NCBI GenBank assembly: GCA_000165345.1
Contig: CM000429.1
Coordinates: 672,001 to 736,000, forward strand
Direction: 5' to 3'
Length of the DNA stretch: 64,000 nucleotides
Below the pieces are notes generated by a model, which worked only from the letters and a program-made list of their open reading frames with translations, was not told the origin of the DNA and did not search any database. The position numbers and the translations under genes are program-made. Shown here piece by piece: positions 16,721-59,480 of the stretch. Within the stretch, counting starts at the first letter, position 1. Each line of letters opens with the position of its first letter.

Positions 16721-16759
16721 CCGGTACTGGGGAAAAAATAATTAGAATATGCATGCAAT
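16721..16759. promoter_or_regulatory. ACCGGTAC box (16721-16728) followed by ATGCATGCAAT (16749-16759), in the divergent promoter between the cyclin gene and the CstF77-like gene.
   Basis: A composite arrangement that recurs at five other promoters in this window. Confidence 0.5.
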
Positions 16760-17610
16760 TCTGTGTGTAAACAATAAAATAAAAAAAATTAGTTAGAATT
16801 ATTTAAAAAAAATAAAAGTTTAGTGAAATTTCAGCCTATGATGTATTGATAATAAGTGATATAAAGATGACTTAATTAATGATTCACTGTTTAAAGAGAA
16901 TCAGCTTATAATAATAAAAAAAAAAGAGGTGAAGGTAATACATGGAGAAAAGTTGAGAAGAGTATAGTATTGCCAATATTAAAATTCTAAATATAAGAAT
17001 AATAAACAATAGGAAAGAGAAGTTTATAAAAGAAAGAATGTAAGTAATTAAGTTAATATGATAAGTTATTTCGGAATATATTTATTTTTAATAAGCATTA
17101 TGAAGAGTTAAAAATATTAAAAAAAAAAAAATCAACAAAGTTCACATGAAGAGGATAGAAAAGTTTCTAATAAAAAGGGGATTTAAAGTGGGAGTATTAT
17201 TTAGAGAATATAATGCGAAGATAATAATAAAATGCCGAATAAATATAAAAGAAAGTTTCAAAATAATTACTATTTAAGAAGTGGCACAAACATGGAATAA
17301 GAATAGGAATATCTAAGCACACACTCAGAAGAAAAGATAATATCTATAAAAAAGTTTGTGTGTTTCAATGAATGGCTATAAACATCTTTATTATAAGAAT
17401 GATGCTTTTTAAAAAGCCGATATTTGCAAAACTAGTTTAATTAAGCAAACAAGTTTGGGCGGCAAGGCAAAAATGCGTCTCTAAAAAGCAAATTTAAATG
17501 TTGAAAACAAATAAAATTAGTAAAAAAAACAATAAGAGTACTAAATAAATTAGAGATTTGGATTTGGGAAAGAAGTACAAGTGTGAGCAGATTTCACTGC
17601 GATCTCTAAG

Positions 17611-20600
17611 ATGAAGAAGGGAATAACTTCTTTAATAGATTCAATCGTAGAGAAGAATCCATATGATTATTCACTATGGGAGAATATATTCACAGTGAAA
17701 TCAGAAAGTGAAGTTTTTGAAAGAGCTTTGGAGTTTTTTCCAACAAGTCCAATAGTTTGGAAAAGATATATTGAATATCTTCAATCTCAGAAAAATACAG
17801 ACGAAAAGGTTTTATTAGGTATTTATCAAAGATGTATTCACCAATGTTCTTGTATAATGATATGGAAGTTATTTATACCATTTGTTGATGAAAAGATTAA
17901 CAGTCTAAAGGATCGTTATCAAATTTATCAGTTGGCATTAGATACTGTTGGATCAGATCCTAGGAGTGGATTCATTTGGCAAAGAATGTATAAATTAAGA
18001 TTAATGGTTTACAATACTTTAATATCAAAAAATGAGGCAAGTTTATCAGGAAATACATTATTGTTGAATCCATTTGAGACAAGTACTATACCTATTATTA
18101 GTGAGCAAATTGAAGAATGTTTTGCATTGGGTGATAAAATTGCAACTATAGTAACTTTAAGACAATTCTTTATACAATGGTTAACTACTCCTGTTGGAAA
18201 TTTAGAAACTGCATTTATAGCATATTCCTTATTTGAGAACTCTATTTCAAGCTCAAGTACTACTGATGTTCCTAATATGAATACTGGCATTGTAATTGGT
18301 GGAGTTGTTCCAGTTTCTGAATCTGCTAGTAAATTAGTTACAAAAAATTTATTACAATCTGGAGAAAAATTAGTAAATATTTCAAAGATTGTTCACAAGA
18401 ATATGATGGTATTGGTTGATAATTTACATGAAGATATTCCAGCAAAACCATTGGATAAAAGTAATAGAAGTGAGTGGATGAGTAAGTTTATTCCTTGGAA
18501 GAGATATATTTTATTTGAGAAGAGCAATCCATTAGGATTAGATAAATCACACTATTTTAATAGGGTTTCCTATTCTTTTAGGAATTGTTTATTATACTTT
18601 TCATATCATCCAGAAGTTTGGTATGAATATTTTATTTTTGTTTGGAACTCTCATCCAGTTCAATTAACTGGTATGGAAATTGCAACTGAACTTTTGAGCT
18701 CAGCAATACAACGTTTTTTACCAAAAGATGAGATTTTAAAGTTGGTACTGGCTGAGGTTTATGAGCTTAGAAAAAAATTGGACAAGGTAATGCATTTATA
18801 TCATTCCATGATATATATTGAGAGTTCTGGAGAAGTTATTCAAATGGATGATTCTGGAGTACCAGTAACTGATGATAATAATGGCGATAATAATATAAAT
18901 ATGAGTAACACGAGTGTTGGTAATAATAACAATAGTAATAATAATAATAGCACTCAAAGTAATACTCAAAGTAATACTCAAAATAATACTCAAAATAATA
19001 ATCAAAATAATAATAATAATCATCATCATCATCTCAATTCCGGTATTGGAATAAATAATGATCAAAATAATCATCAGATTAATATACAAGAAGAGGCTAA
19101 TGATCACCATATTTCTATGGGAAAAAGTAGAAATAGTCAGCTTTTTGTAAATGTTGGTGAAGGAATAGGGGGAGAGACATTTGGAGTTAATAATGGTAAT
19201 TCTAACAATGTTATTGGCTCAAGATCATCTGTTGCGATGATTGATGATAATTCCAATAGTTTAGGAGGATCTAATACAACAGATTTTCATATTGGTGATA
19301 GGAATGATGGTATTAGTATTAGCAAGCAATACTCTCAAATGATAACTAGTGGCTTATCACATAAACAATATAATCCAGGAGTATCAGCTGTGGTAATTAT
19401 TGAGTATTTGAACTTTATACTACGAAGTACTAATGATAAAGTCATATGGAGGGAAGTATTTTTGGATTATGTTAAAAGATCTCCAAGGATTTATGATATT
19501 AAATGGATTTGTTATTCTCAGGCTTTAAATGAATGGAGGTTATATAATAATCTTGATGGAGCTTATCAAATCTTTTATTTTGGAATGTATTATAGGCACT
19601 TATTTCTGGATGTATCATTTATGTCATGTTTTGTATCTTTTCTATTAGATACTGGTAAACTTCAACAAGCAAGGAATACATTGCAATCATCTATTTATGA
19701 GATTTACAAAGAAACTGGTAAAGTTCCAAAACAACTTTGGTTACAATGGTTTCATTTAGAAAGAATGAGTGGGTCTTCTATTTATTCTTTGAATTATTTA
19801 AATAGGATTTATCAGCTTCAAAAAGATGGGAAAAATGTTGAAATTGATATGTTATTAAGTAAAAGACAACAAGAAGCTTGGCATGCCATTTTAGGAGCTC
19901 CTGAGTTTGCTGAGTTGAATAAGGAGTATATTGGAAATGATAATATTGACCCCAAGACTAAAGTATATGGTCATTCATATATTGTTAATCCATTTGATGA
20001 TGATAACTTCATAGGAGGATTATCATCAAGTAATGTAAATGATAGTAATAATAATGATAATAATAATAATATCAATAGTTCATCTAATTTATTATTACAG
20101 AATCAAAGAGGAGCAAATTCAGTATTAACAACAGGAGCAATAGGAAATTCAAGACGAAGTTTGGAAGTTAATAGTGGTAATAAGTTCATATTAACTTGTC
20201 CGAGCAAATTTAGAACAGCTTTTGAATGTTTTAGATTTGGTTCTATTTACCCAAATAGTTCTTGGACTGAGTTTTATTTATTTGATGGAGAGGAAGGACG
20301 TAATAATTATTTGGGAGGAGGTATTGGTATATCTTCTCAATCAGAGGATGAGAGAATATGTTTAGGGAATTGTAATATTTGCTCAAAGCCATCTTCAACA
20401 TCATCATCATCAGTAAGTAATGGAAATTCAAATACTTGTATATGTAATTGTCATAACAAAATAAAAGGTACAGCAAGTATCTTATCAAGATCAGTTCTAG
20501 AAGAAGGTAAATCTGATTCATCTAATGATTATAATTGTGTTTCTGAAGGTAGAATTGCTGGTACGTATCATAATGAACAAAGTACTGGTATTGCTACTAA

Positions 20601-59313: not shown

Positions 59314-59351
59314 ATATATATATATATATATATATATTTTTTTTTTTTTTT
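59314..59351. repeat. (AT)n followed by poly(T).
   Basis: atatatatatatatatatatatat then ttttttttttttt, in the divergent intergenic region. Confidence 0.85.
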
Positions 59352-59420
59352 CTAAATTTTTTATCTCCTAAATTCGACTTCTTATTGTTAATTTTGACTA
59401 TTAATTAATATTCTCTACTG

Positions 59421-59480
59421 TTGGCGCCCAAACTCACATATTTTTCAATTATTAATTCCGGTACCTGTTTTGGCGCCAAC
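59421..59480. promoter_or_regulatory. Two E2F-like boxes, TTGGCGCCCAAA (59421-32) and TTTTGGCGCCAAC (59468-80), flanking CCGGTACC (59458-65). A palindrome ACGCATGCGT lies at 59067-76. All are in the divergent promoter between NOL10(-) and gene 59680(+).
   Basis: Read directly from the sequence. Confidence 0.55.

Follow-up and report, generated by a model that had tools for sequence, protein, structure and literature searches.

A conserved CGGTAY word coupled to GCATGC and E2F boxes in intergenic DNA of Cryptosporidium parvum chromosome 1

Do the short GC-containing words that recur between the genes of Cryptosporidium parvum mark one composite binding site, or a looser set of regulatory words? 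The question is raised by a 64-kb stretch of chromosome 1 of C. parvum Iowa II, the window of this analysis, which runs from about cgd1_3150 (cyclin) to cgd1_3290. Its G+C content is about 27%, and 78% of it consists of long intron-less open reading frames (ORFs); later annotation numbers for genes in the window are CPHLJ_1g3180, 1g3210, 1g3260 and 1g3280. Of ten ORF products, eight are identical to Iowa II proteins. An earlier note on this DNA had listed six intergenic places at which a ACCGGTAC-like box precedes GCATGC, and had read the pair as a bipartite site of fixed order and spacing for a heterodimeric or tandem-AP2 factor. That claim is partly supported – the observation is largely right and more than chance, and the interpretation is half right. 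A box with the core CGGTA(C/T), or CGGTAY, is enriched in the intergenic DNA, footprinted across species and coupled to known promoter boxes.

With ORFs of at least 150 amino acids masked, the remaining 14,023 bp of intergenic DNA were scored against an order-2 Markov model. CGGTAC occurs 7 times against 0.57 expected (p 2.5e-6) and ranks 15th of 1597 6-mers, so the excess over chance is real. The related words are also in excess: 8 copies of CCGGTA against 1.14 expected, 5 of GGTACC against 0.42, 4 of CGGTACC against 0.085, and 3 of CCGGTACC against 0.017. In shuffles of the window, the 4 copies of ACCGGTAC compare with 0.06 expected. The enrichment survives a Bonferroni correction over all 6-, 7- and 8-mers, for which the p-values were multiplied by us. 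Low-complexity words and one local purine repeat rank above the CGGTAC/CCGGTA/GGTACC family, as do the GCATGC and E2F families; of the sequence-specific families it comes next after these two. The box is also enriched in intergenic samples of C. meleagridis, Cryptosporidium chipmunk genotype I and C. canis.

Over all sites the constant part is CGGTA(C/T). Position −1 is mostly C, and position −2 may be A, G or T; the ACCGGT palindrome is not required because position −2 varies. The box often extends to a palindrome around CCGG or GTAC, as TACCGGTA or GGTACC. Five of the six boxes in the earlier note are present, within 1–4 bp of where it placed them; the sixth, at 55548, is only ACGGTAC, has no CCGG and is unconserved. 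The GCATGC given for 55562 proved to be TGCATGTA (GCATGT), and the true GCATGC is at 55606.

Orthologous loci were taken around three anchor proteins, and the spacers were aligned with those of C. meleagridis, chipmunk genotype I, C. ubiquitum, C. canis, C. felis, C. ryanae and C. muris. Protein identity for the kinase is 92% in C. hominis, 91% in C. tyzzeri, 83% in C. meleagridis, 69% in chipmunk genotype I, 62% in C. ubiquitum and 57% in C. canis, while for NOL10 it is 91% in chipmunk genotype I, 86% in C. ubiquitum, 80% in C. canis and ca. 62% in the gastric species. The box is conserved exactly in C. canis at 4 of 9 loci, compared to 4.8% of all intergenic 6-mers (binomial estimate ca. 7e-4), and in chipmunk genotype I for 9 of 12 box matches, compared to a 19% baseline. 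In enrichment and in position-specific conservation, the box behaves as a generic transcription-factor binding site does. At aligned positions in C. canis, 7 of 9 E2F hexamers are kept and 1 of 11 GCATGC hexamers. The turnover of GCATGC between C. parvum and C. canis is thus much faster than that of E2F; both boxes stay enriched in every species sampled.

The spatial coupling of the box to GCATGC, a second part of the earlier claim, also holds. Five of the six intergenic CCGGTA loci have a GCATGC within 50 bp (null mean 0.45, P ca. 5e-5; P ca. 2.5e-4 when redrawn within the same spacer), and 5 of the 9 core loci have an E2F box within the same distance (P 2.5e-4 in the window). E2F and GCATGC are not coupled to each other (1 of 12 E2F boxes), so the coupling of the box is not a general crowding of promoter words. 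Either TGCATG(CA) or an E2F box lies within 50 bp of 8 of the 9 intergenic instances, including all 7 that are footprinted. In the other species, 21 of 27 intergenic loci have a TGCATG or E2F box at most 50 bp away, where 4.9 would be expected, though these loci are orthologous and so not independent. The clusters share further words, (T)TGTCCACAT / ATGTGGACA and ACGTAAT. Of the partner boxes, TGCATGCA is an enriched palindrome with 14 copies, 12 of them intergenic, against 0.09 expected, and the E2F/DP box ([A/T][C/G]GCGC[G/C][A/T]) likewise stands out, all 7 copies of GGCGCC being intergenic.

On balance we think it probable that the CGGTAY box is a site of an unassigned DNA-binding protein, used combinatorially in flexible promoter clusters. 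It would be a cis-regulatory DNA word of the intestinal Cryptosporidium species, acting on transcription alongside the TGCATGCA, E2F and TTGTCCACAT boxes, often with TTGTCCACAT or ACGTAAT near it. The clusters occupy bidirectional promoters and unusually long spacers. Candidate binders are an AP2 protein without a protein-binding-array motif, a Myb protein or a zinc-finger protein. The AP2 proteins of this kind are cgd6_1140, cgd3_2970, cgd6_5320 and cgd3_1980, and cgd6_4510, cgd3_2510 and cgd3_1120 are DNA-binding Myb proteins. The features of the window are collected in Table 1.

Table 1. Clusters, single boxes and other features of the 64-kb window
Feature	Positions	Strand	Words and remarks
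Cluster, cyclin / RNA14 divergent spacer	16678–16757		CACGTAATT 16678–16686, TCCACAT 16690–16696, TTGCATGTAAA 16708–16718, ACCGGTAC 16720–16727, TGCATGCA 16750–16757
Cluster ca. 330 bp upstream of cgd1_3180	29405–29468		ACATGC x3, G-box GTGTGGGG 29415–29422, GGTACCGT 29421–29428 (ACGGTACC on the − strand), GGCGCGCGCGC 29458–29468
TACCGG	33679–33684		Lost in C. meleagridis (TACCGACA), chipmunk genotype I and C. ubiquitum
Densest cluster, Vma12 / cgd1_3210 spacer, left part	33717–33840	+	TGCATGCA 33717–33724, GGTACCGG 33748–33755, GGCGCC 33760–33765, TGCATGCA 33770–33777
Same cluster, right part	33717–33840	+	CATGTGGA 33788–33795, GTGTGGAATAAAAAG 33812–33826, ACGTATGT 33833–33840
Cluster, EF-hand / kinase spacer	40764–40855	+	TACCGGTA 40764–40771, GCATGCATGCA 40800–40810, inverted pair TCCACAT 40834–40840 / ATGTGGA 40849–40855
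GGTACC, followed by GGTATCGAA	44317–44322		206-bp 3'-3' spacer, kinase / giant ORF; kept in C. meleagridis only
Giant ORF, RAVE-like gene	44477–54031	−	3,184 amino acids
Patch 1 inside giant ORF	48794–48926	−	ACATGCAACATGCA 48794–48807, AATTACGTCA 48827–48836, TACCGGTA 48850–48857, GTCCACATTA 48878–48887; DNA-level conservation to 48926
Patch 2 inside giant ORF	51996–52068	−	ATACCGTTG 51996–52004 (CGGTAT core, − strand), GTCCACATTA 52004–52013, TGCATGCA 52042–52049, TTGCATGTA 52060–52068
E2F pair and box, giant ORF / cgd1_3250 divergent spacer	54149–54180	+	CCCGCC 54149–54154, GGCGGG 54158–54163, TCGGTAC 54174–54180
ACGGTAC	55547–55553	+	3'-3' convergent spacer; chipmunk genotype I ATATCGT, C. 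ubiquitum ATAATGC
Cluster ca. 125 bp upstream of cgd1_3260, just beyond the NOL10 3' end	56786–56863		CCCGCC 56786–56791, GGTACCGGTA 56816–56825, TGCATGCA 56837–56844, GATGGAATAAAAA 56851–56863
GTACCGGTACC, NOL10 coding sequence	58686–58696	−	Encodes Ala-Gly-Thr-Gly-Thr; in C. ubiquitum and C. canis, not in chipmunk genotype I
NOL10 / cgd1_3280 divergent promoter core	59422–59478		TGGCGCC 59422–59428, CCGGTACC 59458–59465, TGGCGCCA 59471–59478
tRNA-Gly (GCC)	3260–3330	−	In spacer 2998–3663
Cyclin ORF	15135–16118	−	327 amino acids in the Iowa II model
Purine-rich repeat	60700–60860		GAAGGGAGGAAGG-like units, spacer after cgd1_3280

At the 16721 locus, C. canis retains the unit TCCACATT..TTGCATGTAAA(nn)CCGGTACTG as TGCCGGTACTG, and C. 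felis has it in degenerate form (CGCCGGCACTG); the box itself, CCGGTACTG, is kept in C. canis and reads CCGGCACTG in C. felis. The 29421 site, absent from the earlier note, lies in GGGGTACCGT, which is identical in C. canis, and C. felis has GGGTATCGT there. The 33717 cluster is near-invariant from ca. 33740 rightwards in C. parvum, C. meleagridis, chipmunk genotype I, C. ubiquitum and C. canis. Within it, TTGGTACC and GGCGCC are kept in C. felis and C. ryanae, and C. muris has GATACC..GGCGCC. At 40764, C. meleagridis, chipmunk genotype I and C. ubiquitum retain ACCGGTATT and CGCATGCATGCACA; in C. canis the box is found as CACCGGTAC, displaced by ca. 20 bp.

Three further sites lie towards the right of the window. 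The box at 54174, another that the earlier note lacked, is present in C. meleagridis (TCCGGTACT), chipmunk genotype I (TTCGGTACT) and C. canis (TCCGGTATT), reads TCCGGTAC/T in C. meleagridis and C. canis, and is lost in C. ubiquitum (TCTGATACA). At 56816, TACCGGTACC is kept in chipmunk genotype I, where its GCATGC partner is degenerate (CATGCAAA); C. ubiquitum keeps only GGTACC, and C. canis nothing. The arrangement TGGCGCCAA(4–6 nt)GGTACCGGA at 59458 is kept in chipmunk genotype I and C. canis and lost in C. ubiquitum. The C. canis spacer there is 40% G+C and hardly alignable, and little of it aligns apart from the box and the E2F box beside it.

A few matches to the word are judged differently. 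The ACGGTAC at 55547, which has no CCGG, is unconserved and lies in a 3'-3' spacer, is probably not a functional instance. TACCGG at 33679, which is absent from the earlier note, is probably a chance one, being lost in three species (Table 1). The GTACCGGTACC at 58686, also absent from that note, is explained by the protein sequence. The P-loop GPPGTGKT, with Gly-Thr-Gly as GGT ACC GGT codons, yields the same word in another coding sequence. In coding DNA as a whole CGGTAC is also ca. five-fold over Markov expectation, an excess to which Gly-Thr-Gly codons probably contribute.

Two patches inside the giant ORF carry the same set of words. The DNA of patch 1, ACATGCAACATGCA..AATTACGTCA..GTGTGCATACCGGTATTGA..TTTGTCCACATTAGTTAATAATAAATAATTAAAAATATTAATAGGATTAATA, is near-identical in five species, and its TACCGGTA at 48850 is a further copy absent from the earlier note. 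No 60-nt stretch of the 9.5-kb ORF is better conserved than 48867–48926, where identity over five species is 92% compared to a mean of 48%, and 18 of the 20 third codon positions there are identical, compared to 30% gene-wide (Fisher 4e-8). The C. meleagridis annotation splits the ORF at this patch, and a separate gene starts at the ATG in CCGGTATGCAC. Patch 2 reads ATACCGTTGTCCACATTAAT..TGCATGCAA..TTTGCATGTA, with TACCGGT in C. ubiquitum and C. canis, and 51944–52025 ranks with the best-conserved stretches of the ORF at third codon positions. In C. ryanae the corresponding sequence is CACCGGTAT, which lies between the GCATGC boxes GCATGCATG and TGCATGCAA. Both patches are candidate internal or antisense promoters. 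A separate observation is that the C. ryanae protein alignment ends just upstream of patch 1 (window residue 1692, compared to ca. 1700–1750).

The word set also recurs in published long non-coding RNAs (lncRNAs). In the parts of Li et al. 2021 (PMC7840661) compared here, to which all statements on that study refer, Motif5 (TTGTCCACATK) and Motif2 (ANTTGCATGYA) are reported upstream of lncRNAs. Three of these RNAs, with loci elsewhere in the genome, have ACCGGTAT, TACCGGTAC or GTACCGGTAT together with TGCATG boxes in their first 45–160 nt: Cp_lnc_62, which is antisense to a Vps4-like gene; Cp_lnc_51, which was chosen for validation by reverse-transcription PCR; and Cp_lnc_256, a long intergenic non-coding RNA (lincRNA) of ca. 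225 nt. Cp_lnc_51 and Cp_lnc_62 contain ATGTGGACA, and Cp_lnc_256 instead has AACCACAT. By our count, GCATG(C) follows CCGGTA by 23, 41 and 45 nt in transcript orientation in the three RNAs, which agrees with the + side offsets in the window. These RNAs keep a directional reading of the CGGTAY-GCATGC order open, though three cases with imprecise short-read 5' ends do not establish it. No lncRNA of the window, nor any starting at its clusters, was matched in the part of the supplement compared, which is not proof of absence.

An extension of the same reading is possible and is put forward tentatively. CGGTAY, TGCATG(CA), TTGTCCACAT and ACGTAAT could form a directional promoter architecture of lincRNAs, antisense RNAs and internal transcripts, with CGGTAY first and GCATGC 20–45 bp downstream along the transcript's direction. 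Copies inside long ORFs would then impose the constraint on synonymous sites seen in the two patches, and might give rise to an isoform of the RAVE-like protein truncated at its N terminus, or to an antisense RNA of its gene.

Several points weigh against reading the box as the site of a combinatorial promoter factor. The sample is 64 kb of C. parvum and ca. 265 kb of orthologous, non-independent sequence. CGGTAY is kept at none of 6 orthologous intergenic sites in C. ryanae (one keeps GGTACC) and at none of 3 in C. felis and C. muris, so the element may be lineage-restricted or fast-evolving. The searches of all C. parvum upstream regions with MEME, AlignACE and FIRE (PMC3734150) did not report the box, and it may therefore be rare genome-wide. 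The earlier note had proposed a test for correlation with co-expression clusters; the genes neighbouring the clusters, cgd1_3210, cgd1_3260 and cgd1_3270, are in different expression clusters (58, 62 and 105) of Oberstaller 2013 (PMC3734150), which gives no sign of a shared programme. The assembled transcripts of the three lncRNAs contain the words, which also fits a role at the level of RNA.

Two narrower ideas about the box were set aside. A restriction to the clade from C. parvum to C. canis is weakened by the C. ryanae copy in patch 2. A shared expression programme is not evident from the differing Oberstaller 2013 clusters; a full-text search for the gene ids returned only a kinome paper.

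Some of the same observations would fit a site for a general chromatin-organising factor, serving nucleosome-free promoters or insulation and not stage-specific activation, and we regard this as unlikely. The promoters concerned belong to unrelated genes – NOL10 in ribosome biogenesis, the cyclin, the kinase and a V-ATPase assembly factor – and the neighbouring genes differ in expression cluster, as a general factor would have it. The box is also central in bidirectional promoters beside E2F pairs, and the GGTACC at 44317 lies in a 3'-3' spacer and is kept in C. meleagridis. The word is similar, too, to TTACCCG, the yeast Reb1 site. However, some 7 sites in 23 spacers are too few for a general promoter factor. 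Nor is the box among the top three motifs of sporozoite peaks from the assay for transposase-accessible chromatin with sequencing (ATAC-seq), in which E2F is dominant (10.1101/2025.01.17.633476). The 44317 site might itself be due to chance, or be a copy of the box on the terminator side.

The reading in the earlier note, that ACCGGTAC and GCATGC form one obligate bipartite site of fixed order and spacing for a heterodimer or tandem-AP2 protein, is in our estimate doubtful. The significant coupling fits it, as does the fact that GCATGC is at +20 to +39 on the + strand in all five window pairs. The offsets in the three lncRNAs point the same way, and the spacing at 33748 is identical in five species. 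Against this, start-to-start distances are 20–39 bp in the window and reach 45 bp in the lncRNAs, and they shift by a few bp from one species to another; a spread of 20–45 bp is too wide for one rigid complex. The order on the + strand is undefined relative to the gene because the words are palindromic or nearly so and 4 of the 6 listed spacers lie between divergent genes. CCGGTAC is on opposite strands at 16721 and 33748, and at 56816 the words run in the reverse order with respect to cgd1_3260, the sole gene that this cluster precedes.

The two halves also do not behave as one unit. They are not conserved or lost together in C. canis, where 4 of 9 loci retain the box and 1 of 11 GCATGC hexamers survives, and the 40764 box is found there without GCATGC. 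The footprinted sites at 59458 and 54174 have E2F and no TGCATG within 50 bp, while both kinds of box lie within that distance of the sites at 29421, 33748 and 56816. The conserved partner of the 16721 box is found on its other side – TTGCATGTAAA (TGCATG), 5 nt upstream – and the TGCATGCA 30 nt to the right is unconserved in C. canis. At 29421, ACATGC is found to both sides of the box. As for the protein, the box is linked to no AP2 domain, and the C. parvum specificities published from protein-binding microarrays (PMC12246861, Table 4) include nothing like CGGTAC and no GTAC- or CCGG-type motif. With order and spacing this flexible, the arrangement looks like a promoter or enhancer cluster working combinatorially, not like a single composite site.

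It is quite unlikely that the words act in RNA, as conserved 5' leaders of messenger RNAs or lncRNAs that are structured or bound by RNA-binding proteins. Their position inside the assembled Cp_lnc_51, 62 and 256 would suit such a role, although short-read 5' ends are imprecise in a compact genome (PMC7840661). So would the block at 33740–33840 that terminates at GTATGT, which resembles a 5' splice site, and the inverted repeat TCCACAT..ATGTGGA at 40834–40855. However, the box is found in either orientation and in the form of DNA palindromes, the TGCATGCA and E2F boxes beside it are established as sites on double-stranded DNA (PMC3734150, PMC4117751), and Rfam gave no match. At the gathering score, Rfam with a tRNA scan of the whole window found only the tRNA-Gly of Table 1, and at E<=1 the regions 33600–34300 and 40600–41700 gave nothing relevant, only TA-repeat noise.

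Two features bear on transcripts at these clusters in their own right. The ca. 120-bp intergenic block at 33740–33860, CATGTGGATGCAG-A6-..GTGTGGAATAAAAAGAATTATACGTATGT, is near-invariant in the five intestinal species, partly recognisable in C. ryanae and C. muris, and ends at the GTATGT; cgd1_3210 may have its first exon or its leader here, or the block may be a lincRNA that is not annotated. The inverted repeat at 40834–40855, TCCACATAAAATTTTATGTGGA, consists of two copies of the lncRNA-associated TTGTCCACAT word. Its ATGTGGA arm is kept in all five species, and the other arm is TCTACAT in C. canis.

Chance, a base-composition artefact, spill-over of coding Gly-Thr-Gly or a dispersed repeat is very improbable as the source of the box and is largely refuted here: the counts are small, 33679 and 55547 are unconserved and coding DNA has its own GGTACCGGT from Gly-Thr-Gly and its five-fold excess of CGGTAC, but the enrichment survives correction over all words and the conservation is position-specific where the flanks are unalignable. 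A dispersed repeat or mobile element was rejected as well: the clusters occupy orthologous places in as many as 5 species, and what they have in common is words, not order or spacing.

Other features of the window are incidental. The purine-rich repeat is the source of GAAGGA and AGGGAGG in the k-mer ranking, and is similar to the GA-rich motifs at CENH3 (holocentromere) sites (bioRxiv 10.1101/2025.09.30.679541). A link between the box and those holocentric sites was rejected, the motifs there being GA-rich repeats and not CGGTAY. The cyclin ORF compares with 365 amino acids in newer C. parvum, C. hominis, C. tyzzeri and C. meleagridis models, and an upstream cyclin exon in the spacer 16119–17610 is probably missing from the Iowa II model.

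Little is known of gene control in Cryptosporidium, and the accepted promoter words are few: E2F, TGCATGCA, the G-box, CACACA, GAGA and CAAT. In this region the CGGTAY box ranks just behind the two dominant boxes and adjoins them. Several predicted DNA-binding proteins have no known target, and a further conserved word would offer an orphan factor a candidate site. The box would help to define promoters where transcripts overlap, and could flag possible internal or antisense promoters in coding sequence. Scans of the genome must separate coding and non-coding counts, since GGTACCGGT arises in coding DNA from Gly-Thr-Gly.

The Grainyhead/CP2 site AACCGGTT and the Reb1 site TTACCCG of yeast resemble the box in having an ACCGGT or TACC(C)GG core, and serve as leads only. 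Within Cryptosporidium the box is apparently undescribed in the motif catalogues compared, as the earlier note had suspected. It is absent from the 25 motifs of Oberstaller 2013 (PMC3734150), from Mullapudi 2007, from the top three sporozoite ATAC-seq peak motifs, from motif Table 3 and AP2 Table 4 of a 2025 review (PMC12246861), and from the main text of Oberstaller 2014 (PMC4117751), in which the array specificities given are TGCAT, CACACA, the G-box and GGTGCACC.

Among published specificities, the AP2-G motif of Plasmodium and Theileria, GxGTACxC (PMC6631176, PMC4537280), is the nearest to the box, in that GTAC is central to 6 of the 9 conserved sites and GGTACC is palindromic about it. 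A site of this type was nevertheless rejected. No site in the window has both flanks, the G two bases 5' of GTAC and the C two bases 3' of it (CGGTACTG, TGGTACCG, AGGTACCG, CGGTACCT, CGGTACTT), and one flank is present only at 29421 (GGGTACCG). Three sites are CGGTAT without GTAC, and the constant part extends to the CG 5' of GTA. Also, no C. parvum AP2 domain is listed with a GTAC specificity (PMC12246861, Table 4).

Motif5 and Motif2 of Li et al. are the commonest neighbours of CGGTAY at 16678–16757, 40764–40855, 48794–48926 and 51996–52068, and the three words co-occur in Cp_lnc_51 and Cp_lnc_62; CGGTAY itself is unreported in the parts of PMC7840661 compared. Motif4 of that study, mostly a tandem repeat upstream of one lncRNA, includes ATACCGG in several of its listed matches.

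A further comparison is with the AP2_1 (TGCATGCA) and E2F (TGGCGCCA) boxes (PMC3734150, PMC12246861). Unlike these, the box has a CGGTAY core, and in the window it is about half as frequent (7 CGGTAC compared to 14 GCATGC). They stay enriched in the intergenic DNA of C. ryanae, C. felis and C. muris, whereas the box in this sample is not kept there. Like them, it is short, GC-containing and palindromic or nearly so, strongly enriched in AT-rich spacers, conserved between species, and found in the same 100-bp promoter clusters.

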